NCBI GenBank assembly: GCA_003554865.1
Contig: PWHJ01000050.1
Location: 38,981-102,980 of the forward strand
Source: Bacteroidota bacterium
GTDB taxonomy: Bacteria > Bacteroidota > Bacteroidia > Bacteroidales > PUMT01
Reading direction: 5' to 3'
Length of the DNA stretch: 64,000 nucleotides
Under the pieces are notes generated by a model that was not told the origin of the DNA, made no database searches, and saw only the letters and a list, made by a program, of their open reading frames with translations. Both the position numbers and the translations under genes were made by a program. This document shows, one piece after another, positions 38,469-60,819 of the stretch (position 1 is its first letter; every line of letters starts with the position of its first letter).

Positions 38469-40433
38469 ATGATAACGATCAACAATGTTGCGGTTCAGTT
38501 TGGCGGTCTGCTGTTGTTTAAGGATATCTCTTTCCAGGTAAACCGTGATGACAGGATAGGGCTGGTTGGCAGGAACGGCTCCGGGAAGACCACCCTTTTG
38601 AGGCTGATAAAGGGACTTGACCAGCCTGAGGAAGGGGAGGTTTCAGTTTCGCGTGAAGTGGAGACAGGTTACCTGCCACAGCAAATGGTTCATGAGGACG
38701 GAAAAACCGTTTTTGATGAGGCTCTCTCTGCTTTCTCTGAAGTTTTACATCTTGAGAGGGAAATAGAGAGGATTAACCGGTTGCTGTCTGGGCGTACCGA
38801 TTACAACTCGGCAGATTACATGGAGTTTGTTGCCGCCCTTACAGAATATAATGAAAGGCTGGGCATGTTGGGGGGAGATACAGTGCGTGCAAGGGTTGAA
38901 AAGATTTTGTATGGACTTGGGTTCAGGGCTGCGGATTTTGAAAGGGCAACACGGGAGTTCAGCGGGGGGTGGCGGATGCGCATAGAGCTTGCCAAAATAC
39001 TACTGAGGGAGCCGGATCTGCTCTTGCTGGACGAGCCGACCAATCATCTTGACATTGAGTCGATTCAATGGCTTGAGGAGTTCCTGGCTGGTTTCCGCGG
39101 TGCGGTTATATTGATTTCCCACGACCGTGCTTTTCTGGATGCCTTAACAAACAGGACGATTGAAATTTCACTTGGAAGAATATACGATTACAAAGCTCCC
39201 TATTCCCGCTATGTTGAATTGCGCAGGGAAAGAAGGGAGCGTCAGGAAGCGGCCTACCGCAACCAGCAGAAAATGATACAGGAGAACGAGAGGTTTATAG
39301 AGCGTTTCCGCTATAAGGCCACCAAAGCCCCACAGGTGCAGTCGCGCATCAAACAGCTTGAAAAAATGGAGCGGGTTGAGATTGATCAGGAGGATACAAG
39401 CAGCATAAACGTACGTTTTCCCCCTGCACCAAGATCAGGAAGCATAGTGGCCGAAATGTCGGGTGTAGGCAAAAGTTTTGGCCAGGTAAGGGTTCTCGAC
39501 AATGTCGATATGATTATTGAAAGAGGGGAAAAAGTTGCTTTTGTCGGGCGCAACGGGGAGGGCAAAACAACCCTTTCCAGGATCATTGCCGGGGAGCTGG
39601 ACCATGAAGGGAAGGTGAAAATGGGATACAATGTAAAGACAGCCTACTTTGCCCAGAATCAGGATGAGTTGCTTGACAGGGAGAAAACAGTATTTGAAAC
39701 GATTGATTCAATTGCCGAAGGGGATACGGGGAAACAGGTGAGAAGCATACTGGGGGCTTTTCTTTTCAGTGACGATGATGTGGACAAAAAAGTGGGGGTG
39801 CTGTCCGGAGGAGAACGCTCCAGGCTGGCCATAGCAAAGCTTTTGCTTGAGCCCTGCAATTTCCTTGTTCTGGATGAGCCTACCAACCACCTTGATATGC
39901 AGTCAAGGGAAATATTGAAGAGAGCGCTGCTGAACTATGAAGGAGCGATAATTGTGGTTTCCCATGACAGGGATTTTCTTGATGGACTGGTCGGGAAGGT
40001 TTACGAGTTTAAAAACAGGAATGTTGGAGAGCATACCGGGGGTATATATGACTTTCTCCGAAAGAGAAAGCTCAGCTCACTTGGCCAGCTTGATGCCCCC
40101 TCAGGTGTAAAGCAGGAGAAATCCTCAGGGGAAAAAGAAAAGACTCCCTCTCAAAACAAGCGGCTTTATGAGCAGAAAAAGGAGTATGACAGGCGTATAA
40201 GAAAAATTGACTCTCAGCTGGAAAGGACCGAATCAACAATCGAAGAGCTTGAGGAAAAGATAGCGGAAATGGATGCCCGCCTGGCCGAGGCAGGCGAGGA
40301 TATTGAAAAATTGAACGAAGAGGGTTTTTTTCAGTGTTACGAAAAATACAAATCGCGTCTTGCATCGGAGATGGAAAAATGGGAACATCTTGCCGGCAGT
40401 CTGGAAGAAGAACAAAAGAAAAAACCTTTTTAA
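38469..40433 (+). CDS. ABC-F family ATPase (Uup/YbiT-like, C-terminal coiled coil)
   Basis: It has two NBDs (GRNGSGKTT / GRNGEGKTT, FSGGWRMR / LSGGERSR), no TM domain, and a charged C-terminal coiled coil. Confidence 0.9.
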   Translation: MITINNVAVQFGGLLLFKDISFQVNRDDRIGLVGRNGSGKTTLLRLIKGLDQPEEGEVSVSREVETGYLPQQMVHEDGKTVFDEALSAFSEVLHLEREIERINRLLSGRTDYNSADYMEFVAALTEYNERLGMLGGDTVRARVEKILYGLGFRAADFERATREFSGGWRMRIELAKILLREPDLLLLDEPTNHLDIESIQWLEEFLAGFRGAVILISHDRAFLDALTNRTIEISLGRIYDYKAPYSRYVELRRERRERQEAAYRNQQKMIQENERFIERFRYKATKAPQVQSRIKQLEKMERVEIDQEDTSSINVRFPPAPRSGSIVAEMSGVGKSFGQVRVLDNVDMIIERGEKVAFVGRNGEGKTTLSRIIAGELDHEGKVKMGYNVKTAYFAQNQDELLDREKTVFETIDSIAEGDTGKQVRSILGAFLFSDDDVDKKVGVLSGGERSRLAIAKLLLEPCNFLVLDEPTNHLDMQSREILKRALLNYEGAIIVVSHDRDFLDGLVGKVYEFKNRNVGEHTGGIYDFLRKRKLSSLGQLDAPSGVKQEKSSGEKEKTPSQNKRLYEQKKEYDRRIRKIDSQLERTESTIEELEEKIAEMDARLAEAGEDIEKLNEEGFFQCYEKYKSRLASEMEKWEHLAGSLEEEQKKKPF

Positions 40434-42659: not shown

Positions 42660-43004
42660 TTATTCGCCCCTCCCTTCTCTTTGTTTTCTTTCAATAAAGT
42701 AATAAATAATCAGTCCGCTCCCCCCAAGGAGAAATACCATTGAAGAGTAGGCCACTTCCGGTCTTATTGAAGTTGTTGCCTCAAGCAGGTTCCCTGCAAG
42801 CAGTCCTGCAGCCACACCGGCAAGGAAGATCCCCCATTTCAGGCAGGGGTAACCAAACCGGCCGTTTTTATTGTAGAAAATTGAGGCGTCGGCTCCTTTC
42901 TCAATAAGCATCTCGCGCTCCTTTCTCCTGTTTTTTATGTAGGAGAGTGCCACAACGGCGCCGAATATTATTGCCAGAACAAATACAGGTGTTAATTCAA
43001 CCAT
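42660..43004 (-). CDS. Small 3-TM membrane protein (DUF6249-like), divergent from the ECF sigma gene
   Basis: 114 aa with hydrophobic segments and an EREMLIEKG motif. The family call comes from memory only. Confidence 0.5.
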   Translation of the reverse strand: MVELTPVFVLAIIFGAVVALSYIKNRRKEREMLIEKGADASIFYNKNGRFGYPCLKWGIFLAGVAAGLLAGNLLEATTSIRPEVAYSSMVFLLGGSGLIIYYFIERKQREGRGE

Positions 43005-43148: not shown

Positions 43149-43712
43149 ATGGAGTACAGGGAAGACGAATATTACATTGGCAGGGTCCTCGACGGCAATA
43201 CAGACGCTTACGGGTTTCTTGTGGAGAAGCACAAAAACCTTGCCTTTACCATTGCCCTTCGTATTGCCGGAAACAGGGAGGATGCCGAGGAGATAGCCCA
43301 GGATGCCTTTGTAAAAGTTTACCGTTCATTGAAAAATTTCAGGGGCAAGGCGAAATTTACCACATGGCTTTACCGTATTGTTTATAACACGGCGGTTTCA
43401 AAAGTAAGGATAAAAAAAAGATATGTACCCATAGATGAGGCCGGCAGGGGGGATATATACGAAAAGCTTGAAAAGCCGGAAGAGGAGGTGAGCAGTGAAA
43501 AGGAAAGGAAAATGAAAGCCCTTGAGAAGGCAATGGAAGTTTTGCCGGATGATGAAAAAATATTGGTTCAGCTATATTACTACAGTGAGACTCCCGTAAA
43601 GGAGCTTGCAAAAGTGGCGGGCATTTCACAGGCAAATGTAAAGGTTAAGCTTTTCAGGGCAAGGAAGAAGCTTTATGAAGAAATTCAGAGAAACAATGAG
43701 ATATATGCATAA
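43149..43712 (+). CDS. ECF-type RNA polymerase sigma factor
   Basis: 187 aa. It has region 2 (DAEEIAQDAFVKVYRSL, FTTWLYRIVYNTA) and a region 4 HTH (VKELAKVAGISQANVKVKLFRARKKL). Confidence 0.85.
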   Translation: MEYREDEYYIGRVLDGNTDAYGFLVEKHKNLAFTIALRIAGNREDAEEIAQDAFVKVYRSLKNFRGKAKFTTWLYRIVYNTAVSKVRIKKRYVPIDEAGRGDIYEKLEKPEEEVSSEKERKMKALEKAMEVLPDDEKILVQLYYYSETPVKELAKVAGISQANVKVKLFRARKKLYEEIQRNNEIYA

Positions 43713-44136
43713 TAAATTATCAACTATGAGCAGGCTTGATGGAAAGGAAGATAAATTTTTAAGGGACCTTTTCCGTGAAACCGGGCACAAGCAGGCTTCA
43801 GAGGATTTCACCGGTAAGGTTATGGAAAGGGTGCGGTTAGAGACGGTCAAAAAGGAAGAACCCTGGATTGCCAGTGAATGGGTGCTCTTTTTTGTTGCCG
43901 CCGCCTCTTTGGCCGCCCTCTGGGTTTTCGGTAGTCTGATACCGGGGTTTGAAGGTGTTTTAAAAACTTTTGCCGGGAGTGCCGGTATCCTCGAGGAGGG
44001 TTTCAGCAGGCTTTTTTCATATGCCGGCTTCAACGGATATTTTATTTTTGTTGCTGCTGCCGTTTTACTTCCCCTGTTGCTTGATTATTTTTTGAGGCAG
44101 CTGCAAAAAAAGGATGTTAAAGTCCGTATCCCCTGA
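43705..44136 (+). CDS. Putative membrane anti-sigma factor partner
   Basis: ATG 43705 overlaps the sigma stop (ATGCATAA). It has two hydrophobic segments. The start could be as early as 43675. Confidence 0.5.
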   Translation: MHNKLSTMSRLDGKEDKFLRDLFRETGHKQASEDFTGKVMERVRLETVKKEEPWIASEWVLFFVAAASLAALWVFGSLIPGFEGVLKTFAGSAGILEEGFSRLFSYAGFNGYFIFVAAAVLLPLLLDYFLRQLQKKDVKVRIP

Positions 44137-44303: not shown

Positions 44304-44924
44304 GTGAAGAGCCTTTCAGATTCTGAAATTTATTATGGTATTCGCAATAAAGACAATGATGTTTTGGAATATCTGTATAAAAAATTTTTCCCTTATATCC
44401 TTAAAGTTGTAAAAGAAAGCGGGGGAGATGAGCATGATGCCCGTGATCTGTTCCAGGATGCGGTAGTTGCCATCTACAAGCAGGTCCGCGATGACAAGGT
44501 TCGCATAAGAGAGTCTTTTTCGGCATATTTTACAGTAATGTGCAGGTACCTCTGGTATGATGCAAAGGGTAGTAATGCCTCAACAAAGGAGGTCCTTCAA
44601 ACCCGGCTGAGAGATAATGTTGAAGTGGCATCTGAGCAGGAAGAGCCTTATGAAGACAGATCAAAGCATATTGCCGGGGATCTTCAGCTCCGCAGGGAAA
44701 AAATATACCAGAGGTGCTACCGGAAGTTGGCAACCGACTGCAAAAAGGTTCTTACAATGTTTTACAGGAAACACTCCTATGTTCAAATAGCCTGCAGGAT
44801 GGGCTATGCCAGCAGCGGTTATGCAAGGAGAAAAAAATACCTTTGCTGGAGGCACTTAATGGATCTTATCAAAAATGACAAGGAATACAAAAATCTCACG
44901 GAAGGGAGAGAGAGTGAAGAGTGA
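44304..44924 (+). CDS. Sigma-70-family-like transcription factor (divergent ECF-like)
   Basis: 206 aa with a GTG start. It has a region-2-like segment (DARDLFQDAVVAIYKQV, FSAYFTVMCRYLWYD) and a C-terminal HTH-like segment (SYVQIACRMGYASSGYARRKKYLC). Confidence 0.6.
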   Translation: MKSLSDSEIYYGIRNKDNDVLEYLYKKFFPYILKVVKESGGDEHDARDLFQDAVVAIYKQVRDDKVRIRESFSAYFTVMCRYLWYDAKGSNASTKEVLQTRLRDNVEVASEQEEPYEDRSKHIAGDLQLRREKIYQRCYRKLATDCKKVLTMFYRKHSYVQIACRMGYASSGYARRKKYLCWRHLMDLIKNDKEYKNLTEGRESEE

Positions 44925-44930
44925 TCCCGG

Positions 44931-47777
44931 TCATTTTCTGCGGCGCCTGAGAGTGTAAACCAGGACACCCACGGCAATGAGGGCACCAATTCCTCCAATC
45001 ACTCCCCGGCTCAGGTAAGGAGATTTTACAGCACTGCGGGGGTTACCTATGCATACGTAGCCTCCCCAGAAATAAGGATGCGCTCTAAGCATATCGGCAT
45101 TATCAAGAAACTCCAGCCTTGCATGCCTCAATGCTTCATCTGTGCGCTTTCCATTTCTTATGTGAGAGTAAAAATTTTCCATTATCCCTACACCCGACTT
45201 GTCTTCAATCTCCCAAAGAGTCATTACTATGGAAGGAACTCCCGCATAAAGGAAACCCCGTGCCAGACTCATTATGCCTTCTCCTTTAAGCAGTTTCCCG
45301 TAACCGCTGTTGCAGGAGCTCAGCACCGCAAGTCTGGCGTTGAGCCTGAGATTGTAAATTTCATATGTGTTCAGCAGTCCGTCTTCGGCCTCAGATTCTC
45401 CGGTATCGGAGAATGCCAGCTTTGAGAACATGGGGTTCTCATCGTCTATTATCGTGTGCATTGCAAGGTGAATGAAACGGTAATGGGGTGCATTGCTTTT
45501 GAAATTTGTATTGCAGGCATCTTCGTCCAGCAGTGCTTTGCCGCCGAATATATCGGCGGCCATCTGCGCCTCCTCCCTTGCACCCGGAAGAGGGGTAAGT
45601 GTTTGCCGGGCCAGGCGGTAACGGTTAACTTCATCCGGGGAGTCTTCGTTATCCATCCCTTCGTACATAGGGGCGAACGCTATCATGTCGCTTGCGCTTT
45701 CGGTGCCGTGCCCGAGGGTTTCTGTCCATATCGTAGCCGAGTATGCATAGCTCAGGGGATGTTCCCTTAATAGGTAAGGAAGGGTTGCATAGTTTGGCTC
45801 GCCTTGTTCGTTGTTTTCGGTTGTAAGCAGCTCGTAGGGAAAGTAGGAGAGAACGCTGGAGGGTATAATTATCAGTTTTTTGTTCTTTATTCTGGACTGA
45901 AAAGGCTCTATCAGTGTCTTGTAGAGTCGGTAGGAAGTTTCGTTGAATTTTTTGAAGCTTGCCCTTGCATCAGTTGAAACTGAGCTGAAGTTCATTATGT
46001 CAAGAAAATCTTGCACGGTTTCCTCAAGATTGTATGAAAATTCAACATTTTCCCATTGGGCGCCCTTTTTATCGATCAAAAATATGTGTACCGCGGAATC
46101 GCCTGTGCTGTATGACAAAAGAACCTCATCTTTTGAAAGGTGGGATTTGACAGTGCTTATGCAGGTGATACGCGGATCATATTTAAGGTTGAAATATTCT
46201 GGATATTCCTCCTCAAGCTGCTCTTCAAGGCTTTGTATTTGCCCGTTCAGCTCGAATATTCTTTTTTCCCAGTTGGCAATTCTCTGTTCGTTCGGTTTTG
46301 TTTTCTGCCTTTCTTCATATACAAGCTCCCTGTAAGCGGTAAGGGTCCGTTTCAGATTTTCTTCCTCTTCCCTTAATGATTTGGGAACACCGCCAAACTC
46401 CAGGGCTTCAATATTCCGCATTGATGCAAGCAGTACAGCAGCCTTGCTTCTTTCGGAAAAATTAAATCCCTTTTCAAGGTGATCAGGATTTCCCGATTTT
46501 CTGTAGAGTTGCTTTGCCGCATTCATTGCCCGGGGATAGATGTCGGTTTCGCTTTGCGAGAGTTCGAGACGGCTTTCTTCGGTCTGGTATCCCATTCTCA
46601 AATATTCCAGTACTTCTATAGCTTTGTCGTAAGCTTCAATGCTGTATTGAAGGTATCTGGAATTATCCTCTTTTTCTCCCAGCAATTTTAAAACATTGGC
46701 CTTACGTGAGAGCGTTTCATAGAAGTAGGCTTCTGAGATTACATCTTCCCTTTCCGGATTATCCCCCCAATATCCTGATTTGTAATCTGTGCTCACAGCA
46801 ATAAGGGATTGCTGGTACATACCTGCGGCCGTATGAAGCTGGTCAAGCTCTTCGTAAACCCCTCCGATATTCATCAGTATTCTGGACTTGATGGGACTTC
46901 TTTCGCCAAAGTTATGCGAGGCTACTTCGAGGGCTTTTTCATACAATTTCATTGCCCTTTCATAATCGAGGGTAACGTTGGCATGCAAAAGTCCGTAATT
47001 GAGGTAATTGTTTGCAAGTCCGCCCCACATCTCCCCGCGCCTTTCAATGGTTGATTCTATGGCCATATCAAAATAACGGGCCGACTCTTCGGCATTTTCC
47101 ATATAGTAGTGGCTTACCGCGAGGTTACCTGCAGGCACCCTTATTGCCGAAGGGGAGTGTTTTTCCCTTATCCTGAGTGATCTTTCATAATAATCTATTG
47201 CTTTTTTTTGTTCGCCCTGTTCGCTGTAAAGCAGTCCGATATTATTGTAAAGTGATGCCAGCCAGTTCGGGTTCTCCTCATGTGCTTCAAAAATTGCAAG
47301 TGCTCTTTGGTAGTGCTGGAGGGCGGTAGAAAAGTCGCGCTCCTGCCGGAGTATATTACCCTGATTCTGGTAAACAGCTCCCAGGTTAATGTGGTCCGAG
47401 CCGTAATTCTCCTCCAGGATTACCTGGGCTGAATCGTAATACTTAACCGCCTCCCTGCGCCTTAAGAGTACTCGGTTTACTACGCCAAGATTGGAATAAA
47501 CCCCTGCAATTTCCGAAGCTTCTGTTTCTGTCATGTCCCTGTATTTATTCAGGGCTTTAATAAATGAGATGGTTGCCTCTTCAAAAAGGCCCTCGTTGGA
47601 TTGGCTGAAACCTTGACTGTAATATTGGAGTGCTGAATCTGCAATTGATTCTTCATCCGATTCATTTGCCCGGAGATCCTTTGAATATCCATAAAATGAG
47701 AAGAGCCCAATGGCAACAAAAATTAATGTGTAAAAAACAAACCTGGTGCAAAAATTTTTAAGGGCTTTCTTTCTCAT
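44931..47777 (-). CDS. TPR-repeat / CHAT-domain (caspase-like) protein with N- and C-terminal hydrophobic anchors
   Basis: 948 aa with about eight TPR-like repeats (recurrent A..Y/N...G...Y...A). A coiled-coil segment follows. The CHAT domain carries His (FIHLAMHT) and Cys (VLSSCNSG). The C-terminal TM GVIGGIGALIAVGVLVYTL is followed by RRRRK. Confidence 0.85.
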   Translation of the reverse strand: MRKKALKNFCTRFVFYTLIFVAIGLFSFYGYSKDLRANESDEESIADSALQYYSQGFSQSNEGLFEEATISFIKALNKYRDMTETEASEIAGVYSNLGVVNRVLLRRREAVKYYDSAQVILEENYGSDHINLGAVYQNQGNILRQERDFSTALQHYQRALAIFEAHEENPNWLASLYNNIGLLYSEQGEQKKAIDYYERSLRIREKHSPSAIRVPAGNLAVSHYYMENAEESARYFDMAIESTIERRGEMWGGLANNYLNYGLLHANVTLDYERAMKLYEKALEVASHNFGERSPIKSRILMNIGGVYEELDQLHTAAGMYQQSLIAVSTDYKSGYWGDNPEREDVISEAYFYETLSRKANVLKLLGEKEDNSRYLQYSIEAYDKAIEVLEYLRMGYQTEESRLELSQSETDIYPRAMNAAKQLYRKSGNPDHLEKGFNFSERSKAAVLLASMRNIEALEFGGVPKSLREEEENLKRTLTAYRELVYEERQKTKPNEQRIANWEKRIFELNGQIQSLEEQLEEEYPEYFNLKYDPRITCISTVKSHLSKDEVLLSYSTGDSAVHIFLIDKKGAQWENVEFSYNLEETVQDFLDIMNFSSVSTDARASFKKFNETSYRLYKTLIEPFQSRIKNKKLIIIPSSVLSYFPYELLTTENNEQGEPNYATLPYLLREHPLSYAYSATIWTETLGHGTESASDMIAFAPMYEGMDNEDSPDEVNRYRLARQTLTPLPGAREEAQMAADIFGGKALLDEDACNTNFKSNAPHYRFIHLAMHTIIDDENPMFSKLAFSDTGESEAEDGLLNTYEIYNLRLNARLAVLSSCNSGYGKLLKGEGIMSLARGFLYAGVPSIVMTLWEIEDKSGVGIMENFYSHIRNGKRTDEALRHARLEFLDNADMLRAHPYFWGGYVCIGNPRSAVKSPYLSRGVIGGIGALIAVGVLVYTLRRRRK

Positions 47778-47811
47778 AACGGAAAACAGGATTAAGCTGA
47801 TTTTTCCCCTC

Positions 47812-47819
47812 CAAACATA
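47812..47819 (-). promoter_or_regulatory. Candidate TAnnTTTG -7 box for the CHAT gene
   Basis: The minus strand reads TATGTTTG, 35 nt upstream of the ATG at 47777. Confidence 0.35.
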
Positions 47820-48164
47820 TTAAAATTTTTCGATTTATTCTGATTGCTTTGCAATATATTTGTTTTTAAGCTTATAAATATATATTTTGCCTTAATAAGA
47901 TGTTGTTCGACCAATTTTAGTTTTTGGTCGAATCAGAAAGGGTGAAAACTTTACGGTCATTCCGCATAAAACACAATTTTTACAGGCATTCTTCAAGTCT
48001 CATGTTTACAACAAAATAGCAATTGTGCTTATTTAGAACACATTAAAACTTTTCTCTTTTTTTTTGTCACAAATTTCGGGTTTTCCCACAGTTAAGTGAA
48101 ATCAAAATTAACTGGAAAATTAACAGAAATAACATTAAAATATTAACCTGAAATTTTTTAAGTC

Positions 48165-48374
48165 ATGAAAACTACAGACAACTTTTTCAGCCTTCTTGCC
48201 GGACTTCCCGGTGAAACAGTTTTGACCCGCAACGAGCTCAGAGCAATAAAAGGTGGCAGCACAAACGGATTGCCTGCCGGAGAAGATGAGGATATTTTAA
48301 TACCCCCGCCGGATCATGATGAAGAAAAAGATGACGAAGATGAAGATGAGGGTGGAGACGATAACGAGGATTAA
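48165..48374 (+). CDS. Double-glycine-leader precursor peptide with a hyper-acidic core
   Basis: 69 aa. The leader is MKTTDNFFSLLAGLPGETVLTRNELRAIKGG, with the GG codons at 48252..48257. The core is STNGLPAGEDEDILIPPPDHDEEKDDEDEDEGGDDNED. A cognate C39-ABC exporter lies downstream. Confidence 0.7.
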   Translation: MKTTDNFFSLLAGLPGETVLTRNELRAIKGGSTNGLPAGEDEDILIPPPDHDEEKDDEDEDEGGDDNED

Positions 48375-48407
48375 ATAAAACAGACTTCGGATAAAGCGAT
48401 TCTTTTA

Positions 48408-48455
48408 AAACGGGAGACGCCGGCATAAACTGAGACCTGAGCCGGCTTCCCGTTT
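48408..48455 (+). terminator. Two-tier stem-loop after the peptide gene (possible terminator or attenuator)
   Basis: The outer 8-bp stem is AAACGGGA/TCCCGTTT and the inner 6-bp stem is GCCGGC/GCCGGC, with a 16-nt loop. It starts 34 nt after the stop and has no long U tract. Confidence 0.45.
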
Positions 48456-48799
48456 GGAAGAGCAAACCGGTTTGCACTTAAAGTGTTCTGGTGCAATACT
48501 TAACCGGAGGGAAGTTATTTGAATTGGTTTTTAAGCTGCATTGTTTGGGGTTGGCCTGAAGCCTCTCTGGCTTCTTTGGTGGATTGCAGGTTAAATAATG
48601 CGGTTGAGCTGACCGGGCTGGTGTGTAAAGACTGTAATGGTTTTGTTGCTGAAAGGAACCGTGACAGTTGGCCTGGCCGGATCAAACCGCCCGGAACATT
48701 TTGCGTAATAATAATTGGCACCCTGTAAGCCCAAAGTAGTCCTGCATTTGTTAAAAGGGCAACTTTTTTGGGCGAATGAGGTAAATAAAGTAAAGGGTA

Positions 48800-48807
48800 T
48801 AATTTTG
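48800..48807 (+). promoter_or_regulatory. Candidate TAnnTTTG -7 box upstream of the anti-sigma-like TPR gene
   Basis: TAATTTTG lies 64 nt upstream of ATG 48871. Confidence 0.35.
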
Positions 48808-48870
48808 GCTGGAAAAGAAATAAAATATGGAAAATTCCAAGTATAAATTAATGTTCAAAACCTTTTTAAA

Positions 48871-49641
48871 ATGAAAAAAAAGCTTAATTATCAGGCGTTT
48901 ATTGACAAATTCCTGAACGGCGAAATGGAGGGTGAAGAACTTCAGTGGTTCAGAGGGGAAATGGAGGTTAACCCACGCCTCTCTGAAGAGGTGAGGCTTC
49001 AGCAGGAGGTTAGTGAAGCTATCGTCGATGAGGATGTAATGGAATTGCGTGATCAGATGAGCAGGTTGTTTGACAGTGATCGCAGGACCATCAAGGAAGA
49101 AAGCGGAAAGAGGGTCAGCCCGACCGTTGTCAAGCTGGCAGCCGCTTCCATGATTGCCGTATTGATGGCGATCGCATCGTTGTTCCATTTTTACGGGCAC
49201 AATGATGCCACGGAAGATCTTTTCTCCATGCACTATGAAACATATGATGGTGTGATGAATGTGCGTTCAGGGGATGCCCATGTGGATGAAATTATGACCG
49301 GTGCAATTATGAAGTACGAGAACGGAAAGTTCGAAGAGGCTGCTTCAATGTTTGAAGATGTGCTCAAAGCCGACCCGGGTAATGTTGCATCCAGGTTCTA
49401 TGCCGGAATTTCCCATATGGAAACGGAAAGGTATCAAAAAGCCTCCGGAATGCTAACCGAGGTAATTGATCACAATGATAACCTTTTCGTGGAGAATGCA
49501 AGGTGGTATCTCGGACTCTGCTATCTGAAGATGGAAAACCCGGAAAAGGCCAGGGAGCAGTTTGGCTCTTTAGCCGAAGGTGAAGGATTTTACAGTGATG
49601 AGGCGGCAAAGATACTTGACAGGCTCCGGGAAAACGGATAG
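48871..49641 (+). CDS. Single-pass membrane protein: anti-sigma-like N-domain, TM helix, TPR C-domain
   Basis: 256 aa. The N-terminus is FIDKFLNGEMEGEELQWFRGEMEVNPRLSEEVRLQQEV. The TM helix is VVKLAAASMIAVLMAIASLF. C-terminal TPR-like repeats follow (FEEAASMFEDVLKADPGN..., ARWYLGLCYLKMENPEKA). Confidence 0.6.
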   Translation: MKKKLNYQAFIDKFLNGEMEGEELQWFRGEMEVNPRLSEEVRLQQEVSEAIVDEDVMELRDQMSRLFDSDRRTIKEESGKRVSPTVVKLAAASMIAVLMAIASLFHFYGHNDATEDLFSMHYETYDGVMNVRSGDAHVDEIMTGAIMKYENGKFEEAASMFEDVLKADPGNVASRFYAGISHMETERYQKASGMLTEVIDHNDNLFVENARWYLGLCYLKMENPEKAREQFGSLAEGEGFYSDEAAKILDRLRENG

Positions 49642-49764
49642 GTTCCTGTTCCGTCGCGGTTATGCAAGGATAAGGAAAAGTAAATCTTTGTAAATCTTCC
49701 CGCGTATTGCATCTTGAGCTTGAGAGATCCGCTTAAGGTGTGTGTGAATAAAATTAAAAGGAGT

Positions 49765-50589
49765 ATGCCAATTTATAGTGAAAACAGTAAGCTATTATCT
49801 TCCATAAAGGAGCTGAAGGAGGAGCTCGAGAGAAAAAACAGGGAGTTCGACTGCATCAGGTCGGTTTTTCTCTCCAATGTTTCTCACGAGATCAGAACTC
49901 CCATGAATGCAATTGTCGGTTTTGCAAATTTGCTGGCGGATGATGATATGAGTGTAGAGGATAAAAAGGAATTTATTCGCCATATCAATGATAACAGTGA
50001 AATGCTCCTGAGATTGATAGATAATATGATAGATCTGACAATGCTGCAGTCGGGAAAAATTAAGCTTGAAAATAAAAGTTTCTCCATTAACTCGTTAATA
50101 GATGAGCTTTGCAGTGATTACAGGAATTCTGAAACTGTCAGAAGCAAAGGATTGCAGATAATGACCTCGGCAAAGCGGGACAACCCCGCGGAAGCTGTAA
50201 GTGATCCGCGCCGCCTTAAATCTGCAATGCAGCATCTTATAGACAGCGCCATAAGGAATACCCAGGAAGGATTCGTCAAGTTCGGTTACTTCATGGAAGA
50301 AAACAGCCTTCACTTTTTTATAAGATATACCGGATGTGCATTTGATCTTGACGAATTTCAGGGAGATCCCGTAGATGCTCAGGATTATACGGGAAGTATG
50401 AACAACTCCGGCCTTTCGGTTGTAATTGCAAAAAGTATTGTGGAGATAATGAGAGGCAGTGTGTGGAGTGAAAACGGGATAAAAGATCATCCTGCACTGC
50501 ACTTTACAATACCTTTTAAAAAGAGTACAGGATTAATGAACAGGTTCTATAAACTTGGAATTAAAACACGAAAAAATATAGCAATTTAA
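49765..50589 (+). CDS. Soluble histidine-kinase-like protein (HisKA plus degenerate HATPase domain)
   Basis: It has a coiled-coil N-terminus and an H-box (SNVSHEIRTPMNAIVGF). An N-box-like segment (HLIDSAIRNT) is present. The G1/G2 boxes are replaced by RYTGCAF and NNSGLSV. There is no TM segment. The ORF track begins at TTG 49714, and ATG 49765 is the first Met. Confidence 0.7.
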   Translation: MPIYSENSKLLSSIKELKEELERKNREFDCIRSVFLSNVSHEIRTPMNAIVGFANLLADDDMSVEDKKEFIRHINDNSEMLLRLIDNMIDLTMLQSGKIKLENKSFSINSLIDELCSDYRNSETVRSKGLQIMTSAKRDNPAEAVSDPRRLKSAMQHLIDSAIRNTQEGFVKFGYFMEENSLHFFIRYTGCAFDLDEFQGDPVDAQDYTGSMNNSGLSVVIAKSIVEIMRGSVWSENGIKDHPALHFTIPFKKSTGLMNRFYKLGIKTRKNIAI

Positions 50590-50618
50590 AAATATAACCG
50601 TTTCATATTTTATTTGTT

Positions 50619-50698
50619 AAGGTTGCCGGCAAGTTTTTCCATGAGTTGTCTTTCCGTTATCAGCACTCGCCTGATTTAATGCCGGCAACCTTTTTTTT
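50619..50698 (+). terminator. 13-bp inverted repeat with a 48-nt loop, followed by T8
   Basis: AAGGTTGCCGGCA (50619..50631) pairs with TGCCGGCAACCTT (50680..50692), followed by TTTTTTTT. It lies between the HK-like gene and the PCAT gene. Confidence 0.4.
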
Positions 50699-50764
50699 CC
50701 CAACAGTTGGATTTTTCAAAAATACCTGACTATATTTAGCCTCAAATTATTTCAGTTTTCATAA

Positions 50765-52957
50765 ATGGGCTTTCCGCATTATAAGCAACCCGATGCAATG
50801 GATTGCGGTCCTACCTGCCTGAGGATGGTGGCCGCATTTTATGGTAAACGATACTCCCTGGCAACTCTTCGCGACAGGAGCTATATAACGCGCGAAGGTG
50901 TCAGTCTTCTCGGTATCAGTCAGGCCGCCGAAAGTATAGGTTTCAGGACCCTGGGAGTTAAGCTAACTTTTGAGCAACTCACCCGCGAAGCCCGGCTTCC
51001 TGCGATTGTTCACTGGAATCAGGACCACTTTGTTGTACTCTTTAAAGTCACCGGCAAAAAGGGGAGAGAAAAGCTTCATGTGGCGGATCCCGCCGGGGGG
51101 ATTGCCCGGTTCACCCGTGAGGAGTTTATGCGTTGCTGGGCCTCAACTGCAGAAGAGGATCGCGAAAAAGGGATTGTCCTGCTGCTTGAGCCGACACCTG
51201 ATTTTCATGCGGCTGAAGATGACAAAAAAAACAAATCTTCTTTCGGCTTTCTCTTTTCTTATCTCTCCCCCTACAGGAAGCTGGTTGTTCAGCTTTTTCT
51301 GGGTCTGCTCCTGGGCAGTTTGCTGCAGCTAATATTTCCTTTTCTCACGCAAAGTATTGTCGACTACGGTATAGGGAACCAAAATATCAGCTTTATCTAT
51401 CTGGTTCTCATTGCACAATTGGTGCTGACAGTCAGCAGGGCTTCGGTCGACTTTATACGCAACTGGATACTCCTGCATATCGGGGTGCGTATCAATATAT
51501 CACTGATATCAGACTTTCTTATTAAGCTAATGAGATTGCCCATGAAATTTTTTGATACAAAGCTCACGGGCGATCTTCTTCAGCGTATAGGTGACCACAG
51601 GCGTATAGAGACTTTCCTTACGGGCACTACACTCAGGATACTTTTCTCCTTTGTAAATCTTTTCATATTCGGACTGGTTCTTTTGTACTACAACAGGCTT
51701 ATTTTTGCAGTTTTTTTTATCGGCAGCGCATTGTATGCCGGGTGGGTATGGATATTCCTGAAAAGAAGGGAGGAACTCGACTATAAAAGGTTTACACAGC
51801 AATCGGCGCACCAAAGCAACCTTATTCAGCTTATACAGGGCATGCAGGAAATAAAGCTGCAGGGTTGCGAACAACAAAAAAGGTGGGAGTGGGAACAGAT
51901 CCGTGCACGGCTTTTCCGGATCAGTGTAAAGGGACTGGCTCTGAGGCAATATCAGCGATCGGGGGCACTTATTTTGAATGAGATGAAAAATATCTTTATT
52001 ACCGTGATAGCGGCAACTGCAGTGGTGGAGGGGACAATGACGCTGGGAATGATGCTTGCCGTGCAGTATATAATCGGACAACTTAACAGTCCAATAGAAC
52101 AGATCATAGGCTTTTTCAATACAACACAGGATGCAAGGATCAGTCTTGAAAGGCTTGGTGAGGTACATAACCGTCCCGATGAAGAGGATCCCGGGGAGTC
52201 CAGAATACAGGAAATACCCCCTGCGGCATCGCTGAAGGCAAATTCGCTTTCATTTCAGTATGAGGGACCGGAATCTGAAATGGTGCTTGACGATGTCTCT
52301 TTTACAATTCCTAATGGCGGCCAGACAGCCATAGTGGGAACTTCGGGCAGCGGAAAAACCACCCTTATCAGGCTTTTGCTGGGATTTTACCCGCCGGTAA
52401 AAGGGGAGATACTCCTGGGTAATAACCGGCTGGATGTGTTCAGCTTGAGAATGTGGCGAAGAAATTGCGGAGTGGTAATGCAGGACGGATATATCTTTTC
52501 CGATACAATAGCAGGCAACATTGCACCGGGTGAGGAAAAAATTGATAAGGTGAGGCTGCTCGATGCTGCGCGTACGGCAAATATATCCGATTTTATCGAG
52601 GAGCTCCCCCTTGGATACAATACAAAAATAGGAAGTGAGGGCCACGGACTCAGTCAGGGTCAAAAACAAAGACTTCTGATTGCAAGAGCCGTCTACAAGG
52701 ATCCCTCCTATATCTTTTTCGACGAGGCTACCAATGCTCTGGATGCCAACAATGAAAAGGTTATCATGGAAAACCTGCAGGAGTTTTTCAAAGGGAAAAC
52801 GGTGGTTTTTGTGGCTCACAGGCTTAGCACCGTCAAGAATGCCGACCATATAGTAGTTCTGGAAAAAGGAAAAGTAGCGGAAACGGGCACTCATAAAGAA
52901 CTTACAGAAAAACGCGGGGCCTATTATACTCTGGTTAAAAATCAGTTGGAATTGTAA
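50765..52957 (+). CDS. Peptidase-C39-domain ABC exporter (PCAT; bacteriocin-type processing/export ATPase)
   Basis: 730 aa. The C39 active-site context is YKQPDAMDCGPTCLRM (Gln, Cys) and VHWNQDHFVVL...VADP (His, Asp). It has a 6-TM ABC domain, Walker A (GTSGSGKTT), the signature LSQGQKQR and Walker B (IFFDEAT). Confidence 0.92.
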   Translation: MGFPHYKQPDAMDCGPTCLRMVAAFYGKRYSLATLRDRSYITREGVSLLGISQAAESIGFRTLGVKLTFEQLTREARLPAIVHWNQDHFVVLFKVTGKKGREKLHVADPAGGIARFTREEFMRCWASTAEEDREKGIVLLLEPTPDFHAAEDDKKNKSSFGFLFSYLSPYRKLVVQLFLGLLLGSLLQLIFPFLTQSIVDYGIGNQNISFIYLVLIAQLVLTVSRASVDFIRNWILLHIGVRINISLISDFLIKLMRLPMKFFDTKLTGDLLQRIGDHRRIETFLTGTTLRILFSFVNLFIFGLVLLYYNRLIFAVFFIGSALYAGWVWIFLKRREELDYKRFTQQSAHQSNLIQLIQGMQEIKLQGCEQQKRWEWEQIRARLFRISVKGLALRQYQRSGALILNEMKNIFITVIAATAVVEGTMTLGMMLAVQYIIGQLNSPIEQIIGFFNTTQDARISLERLGEVHNRPDEEDPGESRIQEIPPAASLKANSLSFQYEGPESEMVLDDVSFTIPNGGQTAIVGTSGSGKTTLIRLLLGFYPPVKGEILLGNNRLDVFSLRMWRRNCGVVMQDGYIFSDTIAGNIAPGEEKIDKVRLLDAARTANISDFIEELPLGYNTKIGSEGHGLSQGQKQRLLIARAVYKDPSYIFFDEATNALDANNEKVIMENLQEFFKGKTVVFVAHRLSTVKNADHIVVLEKGKVAETGTHKELTEKRGAYYTLVKNQLEL

Positions 52958-52978
52958 AAAATGAGCTTGTAAAAATTT

Positions 52979-54349
52979 ATGGATCAGACAAATGACAAAT
53001 CCAACCTGGAGAAAAAAGCGGAAAAGATCACAATCCGCTCCGAAGAGGTTCAGGATATTCTGGGCACTCCGCCCGGATGGCTGGTAAGATGGGGTATAGG
53101 AGTAATGTTTGCAGCGGTTATGATAGTACTTCTGGGAAGCGGGTTTTTCATGTACCCCGATACGGTGAAGGCCCCGGTTATAATTACAACCGAAAATCCC
53201 CCCTCCGTGATTGCTGCAAGAGCCGGCGGCAGACTGGAAACTATTTTCAATGAGGACGGAAAATCTGTAAACCGTAATGATACTCTTGCAGTGATTGAAA
53301 ACCCGGCAAGCTACAGGGATGTTTTCAGATTGCGCACTATTTTAAAAGAACTTAATTCTAAAGAGAGGCCGGAGGAGTTTTTGTTGAATTTTTCCTTTCC
53401 CGGCGATATGGTCCTCGGTGAGATACAGCCAGCATACAACCGCTTGCTGAAGGCTTCCCTGGAATATCGGCTGTTTGACCGCCAGGATCTGTATGCAAAA
53501 AAAATAGGCGCACTTGAAGATGAGCTGAAAGAGTATGAAGATTATCACAATATTTTGAAGTCAAGGGAAAGGCTTGTATTGGAGGAGCTTGATCTGATCA
53601 GAAAACAGTTTGCAAGGGATTCGGCCCTTTATGCAAACGATGTTATTTCCTCCTCCGACTATGAAAAGGCCCGCTCTGAAGTGCTGGCTGCAGAAAAGGA
53701 GGTGGAGTCGGCCAGGGTGTCTCTTTCAAATGCCGCCGTTACCATTGCCCGGCTTAAACATAATATAACCGATACCATGATGGAGGAGGAGGAGAGACGG
53801 CAGGATCTGCTGACCGAGCTTAACGGCTCACTCAGGCAACTTGAAAGCTCCATAGCCGAATGGGAAAGGAAGTACCTTATGGTTGCAACTACAGACGGTG
53901 TACTGAATTATGTGATGACATGGAGCGAGCTTCAGGAAGTAAGGGCAGGGGACCCGGTTTTCACAGTTGTGCCACGGGAAATGGGAGAGCTTCAAGGCAG
54001 GCTCATTCTTCCCCAAAGAAGGGCCGGGAAGGTTAGTCCCGGACAAAGGGTCAACATAAAGCTCGACGGGTATCCCTTTATGGAGTACGGCATGCTGGAG
54101 GCACGGGTGGAATCTATTTCCAGCGGACCCCTGGAGGGTGGATTCCCTGTAGTATTGTCGCTTACAAAGGGAGCCGTGACTTCGTATGGTTATGAATTGG
54201 AGGTTGTGAGAGAACTTTCAGGGGAGGCCGAGATCACTACCGAGGAGATGAGCCTTCTGGAACGCCTGGTGAGTCCAATACGCCACCTGCTGAGACACCA
54301 TATTCGGGATGCTGAAAATCAGACAAGCGCCGAAAAGAATGTTCGTTGA
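52979..54349 (+). CDS. HlyD-family membrane-fusion/adaptor protein
   Basis: 456 aa. It has an N-terminal TM (WGIGVMFAAVMIVLLGSGFF), a long coiled-coil hairpin and C-terminal beta domains. It lies 21 nt downstream of the PCAT gene. Confidence 0.85.
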   Translation: MDQTNDKSNLEKKAEKITIRSEEVQDILGTPPGWLVRWGIGVMFAAVMIVLLGSGFFMYPDTVKAPVIITTENPPSVIAARAGGRLETIFNEDGKSVNRNDTLAVIENPASYRDVFRLRTILKELNSKERPEEFLLNFSFPGDMVLGEIQPAYNRLLKASLEYRLFDRQDLYAKKIGALEDELKEYEDYHNILKSRERLVLEELDLIRKQFARDSALYANDVISSSDYEKARSEVLAAEKEVESARVSLSNAAVTIARLKHNITDTMMEEEERRQDLLTELNGSLRQLESSIAEWERKYLMVATTDGVLNYVMTWSELQEVRAGDPVFTVVPREMGELQGRLILPQRRAGKVSPGQRVNIKLDGYPFMEYGMLEARVESISSGPLEGGFPVVLSLTKGAVTSYGYELEVVRELSGEAEITTEEMSLLERLVSPIRHLLRHHIRDAENQTSAEKNVR

Positions 54350-59373: not shown

Positions 59374-60819
59374 ATGAGGTATTACGTGCTTTCCCATATA
59401 ATGAAAGATATACTCAAAAGCAAATTTACCCGGAAGTATCTTTTAAATCAGTTTGACAAGAGCCTTTATAATGCACTGGTGAAAAATGCCACAAGAAACC
59501 TTGTGGAAACCCAGAAAAAAAAGTATCATTTTCTCTCAACAATGCTTAAGGCCTCTGTCAGCAACCTTGAAAAAGGGTATTTTTCCGAAAAGGTCTTCAG
59601 GCGAATAATAAATGTGCTGGTTGAAAATGCTTTTCTTGCAAAGGAAAAGTATAAGGACAAGCTTGAGCAATTCAGGGAAGAGTATGGTGATTATCCTCCC
59701 ACATTTTTGGTGGTTTCTCCTACTCAGGCATGCAATCTCACCTGTGAGGGCTGTTATGCTGCCTCAGGTACAGAAGCAAAACCGTCTATTCCCTATCATA
59801 TTTTCGACCGTATAATATCAGAGGCCAGGGACAAGCTGCACAACCGCTTTATTACAATCAGCGGAGGCGAGCCTTTTATATACAAAAGTGAGGGTAAAAC
59901 ACTGATGGATATATTTGAAAAGTATAATGACATGTTTTTCCTTGTCTATACCAACGGAACCCTCATCACACAAGAGCTGGCCGAAAGAATGGCCGGGGCG
60001 GGTAACGTTACACCGGCTATTTCCGTTGAGGGGTTTGAGAAGGAGACGGATGCGCGCCGCGGAGAGGGAACGCACCGCCGGGTTCTGCAGGCCTTTGAGA
60101 ACCTCAGAAATGCCGGAGTGCCTTTCGGTATATCTGTTACTGCCACAAGCGACAATGCCGGTATTCTGCTTGATGATAAGTTCTATGAATACTTTTTTGA
60201 CAGGGAAAGGGCCATATATATGTGGCAGTTCCAGCTTATGCCAATAGGAAGGAGCAACAAGGCTTTTGAGAAGATGGTTCCGCCGGAAAAACGTGTGGAG
60301 CTTTACAGGAAGTGGGACGAGATGATAACCAATGAAAAGTATTGTGTGGCCGATTTCTGGAACAGCGGTGTTCTTTCAAACGGCTGCCTTGCATACGGAA
60401 GAAGGGGAGGATATCTCCACATTGACTGGAACGGCAATATTATGCCCTGTGTTTTTGTCCCTTATTATGTAGATAATATCTATGATCTTTACAATAACGG
60501 AAAAACCCTTGTGGATGCCCTCTTTTCCGATTTTATGAAAAACGGGCGTAAGTGGATAGACGATTATGGTATGCGCAATCCGAAAGAAGCTAAAAACTGG
60601 CTGATGCCCTGTTCCATACGCGATCATTATGCAAATTTCAGAGAGAATATCCTGCCTGAAAATGCCAAACCGGAAAATGAGCAGGCGCGCGAATCCCTTG
60701 AGGATGATAACTACTACAAGAACCTGGTTCTATACGACGATAGACTGGAAGAGCTAACCGGTGATATTTGGGAAAAGGAATACCTGAAGAAAGAGAGCAC
60801 GGTTGAGCAAAACCGTTAA
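59374..60819 (+). CDS. Radical SAM protein (about 100-aa helical N-extension, SPASM-like Cys-containing C-region)
   Basis: 481 aa. It has a CxxxCxxC motif (ACNLTCEGCYA) and GGEPF. AGGAGGG lies 6 nt upstream of the ATG. Confidence 0.8.
   Translation: MRYYVLSHIMKDILKSKFTRKYLLNQFDKSLYNALVKNATRNLVETQKKKYHFLSTMLKASVSNLEKGYFSEKVFRRIINVLVENAFLAKEKYKDKLEQFREEYGDYPPTFLVVSPTQACNLTCEGCYAASGTEAKPSIPYHIFDRIISEARDKLHNRFITISGGEPFIYKSEGKTLMDIFEKYNDMFFLVYTNGTLITQELAERMAGAGNVTPAISVEGFEKETDARRGEGTHRRVLQAFENLRNAGVPFGISVTATSDNAGILLDDKFYEYFFDRERAIYMWQFQLMPIGRSNKAFEKMVPPEKRVELYRKWDEMITNEKYCVADFWNSGVLSNGCLAYGRRGGYLHIDWNGNIMPCVFVPYYVDNIYDLYNNGKTLVDALFSDFMKNGRKWIDDYGMRNPKEAKNWLMPCSIRDHYANFRENILPENAKPENEQARESLEDDNYYKNLVLYDDRLEELTGDIWEKEYLKKESTVEQNR

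Follow-up and report, generated by a model that had tools for sequence, protein, structure and literature searches.

Why should a sigma factor, a caspase-like protease, and a small exported peptide be encoded side by side in a member of the Bacteroidota? The question is raised by a 64,000-nucleotide stretch of contig PWHJ01000050.1 (assembly GCA_003554865.1, a Bacteroidota bacterium of the order Bacteroidales; positions 38,981 to 102,980 of the forward strand), here called the window. In it, seven neighboring genes encode a sigma factor, a tetratricopeptide repeat (TPR)-CHAT protein, a precursor peptide with a double-glycine (GG) leader, an anti-sigma-like TPR protein, a short protein resembling a histidine kinase (HK), a peptidase-containing ATP-binding cassette transporter (PCAT), and a HlyD adaptor. 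A preliminary description of the locus had named these genes, and inspection of open reading frames (ORFs) and profile searches return all seven with the coordinates, strands, and domains it gave them (Table 1). We suggest, with a probability of roughly 45%, that the locus is a member of a conserved Bacteroidota signaling module in which a sigma factor of the extracytoplasmic function (ECF) type, a TPR anti-sigma-like protein, a TPR-CHAT protein, and a GG peptide make up a peptide-sensing loop. Literature searches covering CHAT proteins together with double-glycine peptides, CHAT proteins in the ECF reclassification and ECF group descriptions, and peptide-triggered anti-sigma proteolysis turned up no account of this module.

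Conservation of the gene neighborhood

We compared 82 loci from Marinilabiliales and Bacteroidales, anchored on the CHAT protein (30 to 64% identity) and fetched with up to 10 kb on each side; at least 588 CHAT relatives turned up when a single genome of each species was scanned, and 80 loci at 30 to 46% identity were retained from them. About 36 full-length CHAT orthologs (41 to 64% identity) come from Bacteroidales/Marinilabiliales metagenome bins, and cultured carriers include Marinifilum flexuosum DSM 21950, Labilibaculum manganireducens, Ancylomarina euxinus, Sunxiuqinia elliptica, and Mangrovibacterium marinum. Locus L001, whose CHAT ortholog is 63% identical to that of the window, reproduces all seven genes and their order, with the gene for pyruvate phosphate dikinase (PPDK) next in line. 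Locus L002 (44% ortholog) occupies the same chromosomal position; there, the genes for the sigma factor, the CHAT protein, four tandem peptides of 48 amino acids (aa), the TPR protein, and the HK lie together, with the PCAT gene about 6 kb off.

In 36 loci the CHAT gene is flanked by 5 kb or more on either side; of these, 35 have the TPR protein, 33 the sigma factor, 16 the short HK, and 7 the PCAT; CHAT, sigma, and TPR genes co-occur in 33. All ORFs within 6 kb were clustered all against all in an unbiased manner, which gave a CHAT cluster of 82 loci, followed by the sigma factor (64 loci), the TPR protein (62 loci), and the HK (23 loci), while all other neighbor clusters comprised 14 loci or fewer and represent lineage-specific housekeeping synteny. 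A reciprocal search starting from the sigma side retrieved the same module. Co-occurrence and unbiased clustering thus argue that the juxtaposition of these genes is not fortuitous. The conserved core consists of the peptide, the TPR-CHAT protein, the sigma factor, and the anti-sigma-like protein; the HK, PCAT, and HlyD genes are recurrent accessories.

The neighborhood comparison bears out the earlier proposal that the CHAT/sigma/TPR trio and the peptide/exporter genes are grouped beyond chance: the trio is found in 33 of 36 loci and a GG peptide in at least 52 of 67, and the two sets do stand next to each other in related genomes. The inclusion of the exporter in this set held up in part. 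An orthologous PCAT (860 to 1460 bits) is present in 10 of the 82 fetched loci, distributed over several clades, either beside the peptide or HK gene (L001, L010, L014, L061, and L071) or 6 to 9 kb off (L002 to L004, L006, and L043), and sigma-TPR-PCAT operons exist, but the PCAT, like the HK and HlyD, is accessory rather than core.

Those operons were found in three loci (L086, L087, and L088; 8001-11528), where the gene of a sigma relative (25 to 27% identity) is followed, with an overlap of 14 nt, by that of a 247-aa TPR protein and then by a PCAT gene. A CHAT gene, a detectable GG peptide, and the promoter motif of the family are all absent within 8 kb. These operons suggest that the link of sigma/TPR pairs to peptide export is older and wider than their association with CHAT, and that CHAT is not indispensable to every sigma/TPR pair of the family.

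Promoter motif and double-glycine peptides

Peptide genes across very different clades are preceded by a common motif, GGGTTACCTTTT-N11-GGAATAAA (consensus GGGT(T/A)ACCTTTT, 11 nt, G(A/T)AT(A/T)AA), of constant spacing and located 73 to 118 nt ahead of the first peptide start codon. From 34 such sites upstream of peptides we derived a matrix that, applied to 1.34 Mb on both strands at a threshold of ≥14 bits, detected 75 sites, compared with 0 to 2 in shuffled loci. Nearly all of these sites fall into two classes, one 5′ of peptide genes and the other at a fixed distance of 32 to 42 nt before the sigma start codon. The sigma-upstream sites, none of which had been used in building the matrix, occur in 17 of the 64 loci with a sigma gene, and about six further loci have a variant, GTATTACCTTTTT...GGATAA, upstream of sigma. 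The motif is also found 5′ of the HK and TPR genes in L023 and L031, and it scores 39 bits before the peptide gene of L089, a locus found independently via its sigma protein.

A motif common to an ECF sigma gene and its neighbors is the usual signature of that sigma factor's own promoter. The same shared-motif argument was used for the promoter of CASP-sigma (PMC10028731). The motif common to sigma and peptide genes leads us to infer that transcription of the peptide genes, and in many lineages of the sigma gene as well, is driven by the sigma factor. The element 5′ of the window peptide gene, TGTCACAAATT-N11-CACAGTTAAGTG, aligns in register with the variants of L001 to L004, L006, L010, and L014. 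Elsewhere in the 64-kb window, the loose pattern matches only at 56032 on the minus strand, inside the PPDK gene, which makes this element the sole intergenic match.

The window precursor has a double-glycine leader (...LRAIKGG at residues 25 to 31) and a 38-aa core with 19 D/E residues and 1 K, made up of a GEDEDILIPPP block and a polyanionic tail. Its match to a leader family is weak (NF047798, E = 0.025); leaders of relatives at the same position exceed the TIGR01847 double-glycine cutoff (17.3 to 19.2 bits versus 15.7), and the cores are covered by no family model. Of 67 informative loci, 45 by a strict pattern and 52 by a relaxed one have a small ORF with a GG leader in the 1.5 kb upstream of the CHAT gene; other parts of the loci give a background of 0.029 per 1.5 kb. 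Peptide and CHAT genes are usually divergent, and L001 to L004 have a homologous peptide at the same position. Tandem copies, two to five in number, are common (five in L019, four in L016 and L002, three in L034); L016 is Marinifilum flexuosum DSM 21950, which carries four copies of the leader MKNFEVLNTEDLKNIKGG followed by the core YQDKCINEDILV.

The 59 distinct cores have a median length of 16 aa (range, 7 to 43; 7 to 22 in most loci). Fifty-five are net negative, D, E, and P together account for 40% of residues, Cys is present in only five, and an acidic-plus-hydrophobic patch is found in 40. Examples from other clades are YQDKCINEDILV, RGRDLDLIVEDFD, KAADAYADLD, YNLPTPIIIEE, and TNNPNTATVEDEDVWL. 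A block right past the cleavage site, G-x-[ED]-DEDI[LI]IP[PD]P, is common to the window, L001, and L002 to L004; the long acidic tail of the window peptide is missing from L002 to L004. Judged from these sequences, the common property of the family is a short acidic peptide, and the polyanionic tail is lineage specific; "polyanionic," as the peptide was originally characterized, does not extend to the family, many members of which have no acidic tail.

Several further features touch the peptide and its surroundings. Similarity of the core to the juxtamembrane motif of the anti-sigma-like protein, which might have made the peptide its mimic, was considered and rejected: cognate pairs scored 15.4, noncognate pairs 14.8, and shuffled sequences 14.9 ± 3.4. 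In L028, L030, L053, L055, and L062 (e.g., L062:7860-9302), Lentimicrobium-type loci with no GG peptide, a protein of ∼480 aa is encoded between the sigma operon and the CHAT gene; it has a C-terminal sorting domain (Por_Secre_tail) of the type IX secretion system (T9SS) and a CarboxypepD_reg domain. L006:3482-6480, between LytTR genes and the PCAT gene, encodes a GG peptide rich in Cys (core QGCLLECMG...), a protein of 469 aa that bears the CxxxCxxC radical-SAM motif, and a 409-aa protein; by its sequence motifs, the segment resembles a cassette for peptides made on ribosomes and modified after translation (RiPPs) and may share the exporter.

Other candidate cis elements were noted around the peptide gene. 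An inverted repeat lies upstream of both the CHAT start codon, at a distance of 130 nt, and the peptide promoter; it is kept only in the window and L001 to L004, with changes that preserve its symmetry, and may be an operator for a dimeric regulator. The palindrome TTCGACC...GGTCGAA was rejected as a general feature of the family, being restricted to the window's own clade. After the peptide ORF, the RNA of 48372-48500 folds at −39.8 kcal/mol (z = −3.7), and inverted repeats I12 and I13 lie there; this hairpin could let peptide transcripts outnumber those of the downstream genes. Six related loci, the window not among them, carry the Rfam cis-regulatory motif DUF805b RNA (RF02914; 47 to 53 bits versus a gathering score of 35.6), always on the minus strand (L025:9632-9666, L043:9643-9679, L048:621-655, L049:9334-9368, L068:9493-9527, and L074:3866-3900). 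It follows the sigma-type promoter and precedes the GG-peptide start codon, which places it in the peptide 5′ leader. A Rfam scan of the window region found nothing relevant, and a generic scan of the locus for sigma-70 promoters and terminators was uninformative, with counts equal to shuffle expectation.

Predicted proteins and layout of the window locus

In the TPR-CHAT protein, H770, H774, and C822 are invariant among 23 orthologs. Hydropathy places a hydrophobic segment at residues 9 to 27, signal peptide-like in orthologs, and a C-terminal transmembrane (TM) segment at 925 to 943 followed by RRRRK, an arrangement that predicts a periplasmic location for the TPR-CHAT body. The AlphaFold2 (AF2) model (pLDDT, 77; pTM, 0.69) has as its best full-length fold matches in the PDB the craspase protease Csx29 (7y8t_B, 6.6e-13; 8d9f_A and 7y85_D, target TM-scores of 0.50 to 0.53), together with DdvA, an anti-sigma factor (8rw5, 1.4e-12; 8rot_A), and human separase; 9hn5_A is likewise among the fold matches. 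On this model, the protein has the DdvA/craspase/separase fold; the similarity is seen by structure search, and the CHAT domain alone has no match among PDB sequences. RapI is among the sequence matches of the TPR part (4i1a, E = 4e-8), a generic TPR similarity that is no evidence of functional homology. Membership in a known defense system was considered and rejected, since PADLOC gave generic TPR and ABC-ATPase matches only.

The sigma factor, which lies next to the CHAT gene in 64 of 82 loci and has no TM segment by hydropathy, is labeled merely "sigma-70 family" in public records. All 52 aligned homologs match Sigma70_r2, and 11 match region 4 in Pfam; the window protein has a subthreshold r4_2 match (E = 0.067) and scores 44.5 bits with TIGR02937 (cutoff, 42.9). 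The family profile aligns over its full length, from sigma2 to sigma4, with SigW (5wuq; E = 1.7e-8; positions 9 to 178 of 191), and also with sigmaE (1or7) and SigL (6dv9), and a protein of 206 aa is too short to accommodate sigma1 or sigma3. By these profile matches, it is a true but divergent ECF sigma factor. Two cysteines in the region 4 part, C146 and C181 in window numbering, are nearly invariant across the 52 homologs; such residues are unusual for ECF sigma factors and may point to redox or metal control.

The anti-sigma-like protein has one TM segment by hydropathy (residues 86 to 104) with ∼85 aa N-terminal to it and TPRs at 137 to 236, so that it is predicted to be N-in with its TPR domain in the periplasm. 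The N-domain is conserved and helical (IE-YL-GEL...E...F...L...P-L... in the family alignment), with three N-terminal helices in the AF2 model (pLDDT, around 80), and in 4 of 10 N-domain fragments it gives a subthreshold zf-HC2 match in the same register (E = 0.014 to 0.29). A gene that abuts or overlaps the 3′ end of a sigma gene is in the classical position of an anti-sigma gene, and the TPR gene does so in 34 of 64 loci; in 29 of 49 loci, the window included, it is directly downstream of the peptide gene, and some loci have one TPR paralog in each position. The TPR protein is most likely the cognate anti-sigma factor of the ECF sigma factor, which it would bind. R132, one of only two invariant residues, lies in a nonhelical stretch (122 to 135) between the TM segment and the first TPR helix of the model, a position compatible with a conserved cleavage or contact site, no more. 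A long form of ∼510 aa, with the same N-domain and a TM segment near residue 340 that implies a much larger cytoplasmic part, is found in Prolixibacteraceae (L034, L045, L052, L054, L057, L063, L072, L075, L076, L078, and L081).

These results bear on several statements made when the locus was first described. The sigma/anti-sigma pairing agrees with the adjacency of the two genes in 34 loci, but the window pair itself is not adjacent: the genes are 4 kb apart, with the CHAT and peptide genes between them. The location of the TPR-CHAT body and of the TPR domain of the 256-aa protein outside the cytoplasm is supported by their predicted topology. The exporter was rightly called intact, as all catalytic and ATPase motifs of the PCAT are present (DCGPTC at residue 13, HFVV at 88, Walker A at 525, LSQGQ at 629, Walker B at 650, and AHRL at 684), and its HlyD partner has one N-terminal TM segment by hydropathy. 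The divergent spacer between the CHAT and peptide genes is indeed AT rich (387 bp; 27.9% GC versus 45.2% for the window). The absence of response regulator, TolC-like, immunity-like, and modification genes was reproduced by ORF inspection of 44304-54349.

The degenerate ATP site noticed in the HK-like protein is likewise present. Its H-box is intact (SHEIRTP at residue 40 of the 274-aa form, with H-E-x-R-T-P invariant in 19 homologs), while the window and L001 have degenerate N, G1, and G2 boxes (LIDSAIRNT, RYTGCAF, and NSGLSVV). The ATP-binding boxes are canonical in nine clades and are also lost in the L006/L010/L014 clade. Hydropathy gives no TM segment and no sensor domain is present, nor does the locus encode a receiver domain protein. 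In one clade with a degenerate ATP site, the HK-like gene is followed by one to three genes for LytTR-type proteins of 110 to 137 aa, with no receiver domain; the window has none. In L089 (14369-16564), three stand-alone LytTR proteins identified by Pfam are followed by a C39-peptidase-VKOR fusion, and in L006:6767-7964 and L010:7201-7557, the LytTR-like small ORFs are recognized by sequence resemblance only.

Table 1. Features of the window locus, in window coordinates
Feature	Position	Strand	Description
Sigma gene ("sigL")	44304..44924	+	206 aa; divergent ECF-type sigma factor; Sigma70_r2, E = 8e-7
TPR-CHAT gene	44931..47777	-	948 aa; membrane-anchored caspase-like protease, predicted to face the periplasm; CHAT, 2.6e-57; TPR_12 x3
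Inverted repeat	47906..47932		Perfect, TTCGACCAA-N9-TTGGTCGAA; between CHAT gene and peptide promoter
Promoter-like element	48065..48098	+	TGTCACAAATT-N11-CACAGTTAAGTG; 5′ of peptide gene; window-clade variant of family motif
GG-leader precursor gene	48165..48374	+	69 aa; leader residues 1-31 (48165-48257), core 38 aa
Hairpin	48401..48461	+	27 nt past peptide stop codon; candidate partial terminator or transcript-end structure
TPR (anti-sigma-like) gene	48871..49641	+	256 aa; single-pass; C-terminal TPRs
HK-like gene	49765..50589	+	Short, soluble; HisKA, 1e-16; weak HATPase_c, 2e-7; accessory
PCAT gene	50765..52957	+	Peptidase_C39 + ABC_membrane + ABC_tran; intact; accessory
HlyD adaptor gene	52979..54349	+	HlyD_3, 5.7e-11; TIGR01843, 6.8e-26; starts 21 nt past PCAT gene; accessory

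In the window, the peptide through HlyD genes are all on the same strand, separated by gaps of 496, 123, 175, and 21 nt, and the module is flanked by housekeeping genes (MscS, SpoU methylase, ABC-F, RumA, PPDK, and phosphoenolpyruvate carboxykinase [PEPCK]). The 496-bp spacer between the peptide and anti-sigma-like genes (48375-48870) contains no credible ORF and opens with the strong hairpin. The equivalent space in L001 carries a second, unrelated GG peptide (core RTSGTDSGEEKKAEEEKK...); a decayed copy of such a gene in the window spacer was considered and rejected, as alignment to the L001 segment showed no meaningful similarity.

Directly 5′ of the divergent sigma gene, the segment 42660-44136 holds a second, canonical ECF sigma gene (43149-43712), an overlapping gene for a 153-aa protein with two TM segments (43675-44136), and, on the minus strand, a gene for a DUF6249-like small membrane protein (42660-43004). 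This trio is syntenic in about 8 to 10 related loci (e.g., L002 and L089). On the other side of the module, 59374-60819 encodes a 481-aa radical-SAM protein with a CNLTCEGC motif and weak, subcutoff matches to peptide maturase and heme biosynthesis families. It was rejected as an overlooked modification enzyme, being a generic radical-SAM protein far under all family cutoffs, with PPDK and PEPCK between it and the module; no link of this gene to the peptide was found.

Proposed peptide-sensing loop and alternatives

How might these parts work together? In the loop that we propose, the sigma factor would transcribe the peptide gene and, in the window, probably also the downstream genes on the same strand (anti-sigma-like, HK-like, PCAT, and HlyD); in many relatives, it would transcribe its own operon too. 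The precursor would be cut after GG and exported by the PCAT/HlyD pump, and the mature peptide would be sensed outside the cytoplasm by the TPR domain of either the CHAT protein or the anti-sigma-like protein. Sensing would activate CHAT or give it access to the periplasmic linker of the anti-sigma-like protein, which it would cut at site 1, and intramembrane proteolysis would then free the sigma factor. The outcome would be a self-reinforcing, quorum sensing-like loop driven by a self-produced peptide. The full chain, a Bacteroidota-native peptide pheromone circuit in which a GG-processed acidic peptide is read by a periplasmic caspase-like protease that cuts the anti-sigma factor and frees the ECF sigma factor for the peptide genes, is possible, and we hold it only tentatively.

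Two precedents exist for a TPR-CHAT protein that frees an ECF sigma factor, and cleavage in the module is proposed by analogy with them. In DdvS/DdvA of Myxococcus xanthus (PMC11506125, PMC6061681), an ECF sigma factor is likewise paired with a periplasmic TPR-CHAT protein bearing a His-Cys dyad; the fold match to the window protein is full length (8rw5 and 8rot, E about 1e-12), and DdvA, in which TPR-CHAT is fused to the anti-sigma domain, is proposed to act as its own site-1 protease before RseP cleavage (PMC11506125). However, the zinc anti-sigma domain, TM segment, and TPR-CHAT of DdvA form one polypeptide, whereas CHAT in the window is a separate protein with a signal-like N terminus, a C-terminal anchor, and no cytoplasmic N-domain, and a small TPR protein takes the anti-sigma position. 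In addition, neither a peptide nor an exporter is associated with DdvA, which governs a CBASS/CRISPR island and has been reported from Myxococcota and a single Comamonas only. In the type III-E craspase, Cas7-11/Csx29, the TPR-CHAT protein acts in trans, as the window protein would: Csx29 cleaves Csx30, a separate inhibitor of the autoregulating, ECF-type CASP-sigma, and so relieves inhibition (PMC10028731). Craspase, which provides the best structural matches (7y8t_B, 8d9f_A, and 7y85_D), differs in being a cytoplasmic, RNA-guided component of CRISPR defense, while the window protease is predicted to be periplasmic and membrane anchored, has no CRISPR part, and belongs to a secreted-peptide module.

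Other known systems share single elements with the module. The Gram-positive GG pheromones ComC/ComAB/ComDE and BlpC/BlpAB/BlpRH (PMC7595303) have a GG peptide, a C39-ABC exporter, and control by their own regulator, and can be multicopy. Sensing there falls to a histidine kinase in the membrane that works with a LytTR response regulator; the window has instead an ECF sigma factor, an anti-sigma-like protein, and a caspase-like protease, along with an HK-like protein that is soluble, has a degenerate ATP site, and has no receiver partner in the locus, and HlyD is added for the Gram-negative envelope. SigmaV/RsiV-lysozyme (PMC4183432) and sigmaE/RseA/DegS/RseP resemble the proposed loop in that a single-pass anti-sigma factor is cut at site 1 after ligand recognition and an autoregulated ECF sigma factor is freed. 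They differ in their site-1 protease, signal peptidase or DegS, and in their ligands, which are foreign (lysozyme or misfolded porins) rather than a self-made peptide. TPR domains that bind short secreted signaling peptides are known from the RRNPP receptors Rap, NprR, PlcR, and PrgX; unlike the predicted sensors here, these are cytoplasmic, and their peptides are reimported. The proposed control of an ECF sigma factor by a TPR-CHAT protease, here split into separate proteins, extracytoplasmic, and coupled to a self-made exported peptide, would be what is new in the module.

Several observations weigh against the peptide-sensing loop. The module is known here from genes and predictions, and the sign of the loop is one that we infer. 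About 15 of 67 loci have no detectable peptide, a T9SS-tailed protein takes the peptide's position in the Lentimicrobium-type group, and the CHAT-less operons of L086 to L088 make CHAT dispensable for some sigma/TPR pairs. No Pfam family matches the N-domain of the TPR protein at threshold (42 members), and its profile finds in the PDB a weak Nif11-domain match (E = 6e-4) and no anti-sigma chain. The window peptide promoter is a diverged variant that scores under the matrix threshold, and no recognizable copy of the motif lies upstream of the sigma gene at 44304. A metagenome-wide scan for the exact motif, aimed at further regulon members, gave two chance matches only, one intracoding and one with nothing downstream. 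Genes for an outer membrane factor and a site-2 protease are absent from the locus. Finally, the peptide had been argued to arrive in the very compartment of its sensors: the sensors are predicted to be periplasmic, but when a PCAT works with a HlyD adaptor, export normally spans the two membranes and ends outside the cell. This makes the compartment argument uncertain, as an exporter of this type would normally bypass the periplasm, and the peptide would have to reenter or export be incomplete.

These points leave room for other explanations, one of which turns the logic around: the peptide would be a substrate, decoy, or inhibitor of CHAT, or CHAT would mature or degrade the peptide, with damping as the result and some other input, for instance a foreign protein or damage to the envelope. 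The usual cotranscription of the peptide gene with the anti-sigma-like gene (29 of 49 loci) corresponds to the classical position for ECF negative feedback; D/E/P-rich cores with adjacent hydrophobic residues are plausible as a protease substrate or pseudosubstrate, and loci with no peptide still hold CHAT, sigma, and TPR. Yet up to five tandem identical peptide genes and a dedicated exporter suit a signal better than a stoichiometric inhibitor, and the cores do not resemble the anti-sigma juxtamembrane segment, with cognate pairs scoring within the shuffled range given above; we judge this inverted logic unlikely. We consider it quite unlikely that TPR-CHAT is a threat sensor like DdvA/DdvS or craspase, which would detect a phage or competitor protein and free the sigma factor, with the peptide as an output serving as an alarm or kin signal. 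Its fold and its association with an ECF sigma factor do match those of DdvA and craspase, both in anti-phage regulation, and the motif puts the peptide downstream of the sigma factor, but the neighborhood has no defense genes, the flanks are housekeeping genes at an orthologous chromosomal position, PADLOC has no specific match, and no CRISPR, CBASS, or similar regulon is visible near motif sites.

An ordinary bacteriocin, microcin, or RiPP locus, in which the peptide would be an antimicrobial or effector, the PCAT/HlyD pair its exporter, and sigma, TPR, and CHAT the regulators or processing or immunity proteins, is very unlikely in our view. The GG leader, C39-ABC exporter, and HlyD adaptor are the standard export set of class II bacteriocin and microcin loci (PMC10233263), and L006 has its radical-SAM-type cassette and Cys-rich GG peptide beside the same PCAT. 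However, the cores are very short, strongly acidic, and nearly Cys free rather than cationic or hydrophobic, and the partner genes are regulatory and proteolytic; the neighborhood clustering reveals no conserved immunity gene, small membrane protein, or modification enzyme, and most loci lack the PCAT, while nearly all of them contain CHAT, sigma, and TPR. The mismatch with classical bacteriocin and Gram-positive pheromone loci that drew attention to the locus is thus upheld by its cores, by the missing immunity gene, and by an HK with neither TM segment nor receiver partner. As for a fortuitous juxtaposition of unrelated genes, the separation of the window sigma and anti-sigma-like genes by the CHAT and peptide genes and the distance of 6 kb to the PCAT in some relatives could be cited in its favor; co-occurrence over 82 loci down to 30% CHAT identity, the common promoter motif, and the agreement of the reciprocal search from the sigma side make it extremely improbable.

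What would the peptide-sensing loop mean for the Bacteroidota? Double-glycine-exported peptide autoinducers are regarded as a Gram-positive specialty, and ECF sigma factors are usually viewed as stress sensors for foreign or damage signals; to our knowledge, bacterial caspase-like CHAT proteases have been tied to sigma control only recently and only in anti-phage contexts. If the peptide is the inducing signal, the module would represent a new peptide-signaling architecture in Gram-negative bacteria and the third case of sigma control by TPR-CHAT, the first to be extracytoplasmic and ligand driven, in many marine and sediment genera, cultured ones included. The hypothesis is directly testable, as the mature peptides are short enough for synthesis, the promoter motif is defined, and cultured carriers exist. 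The peptide, protease, anti-sigma factor, sigma factor, and defined promoter also form a compact and probably orthogonal set of parts for synthetic biology. If true, the loop would give Gram-negative bacteria a new way to signal self or kin and CHAT proteases a physiological role outside defense.

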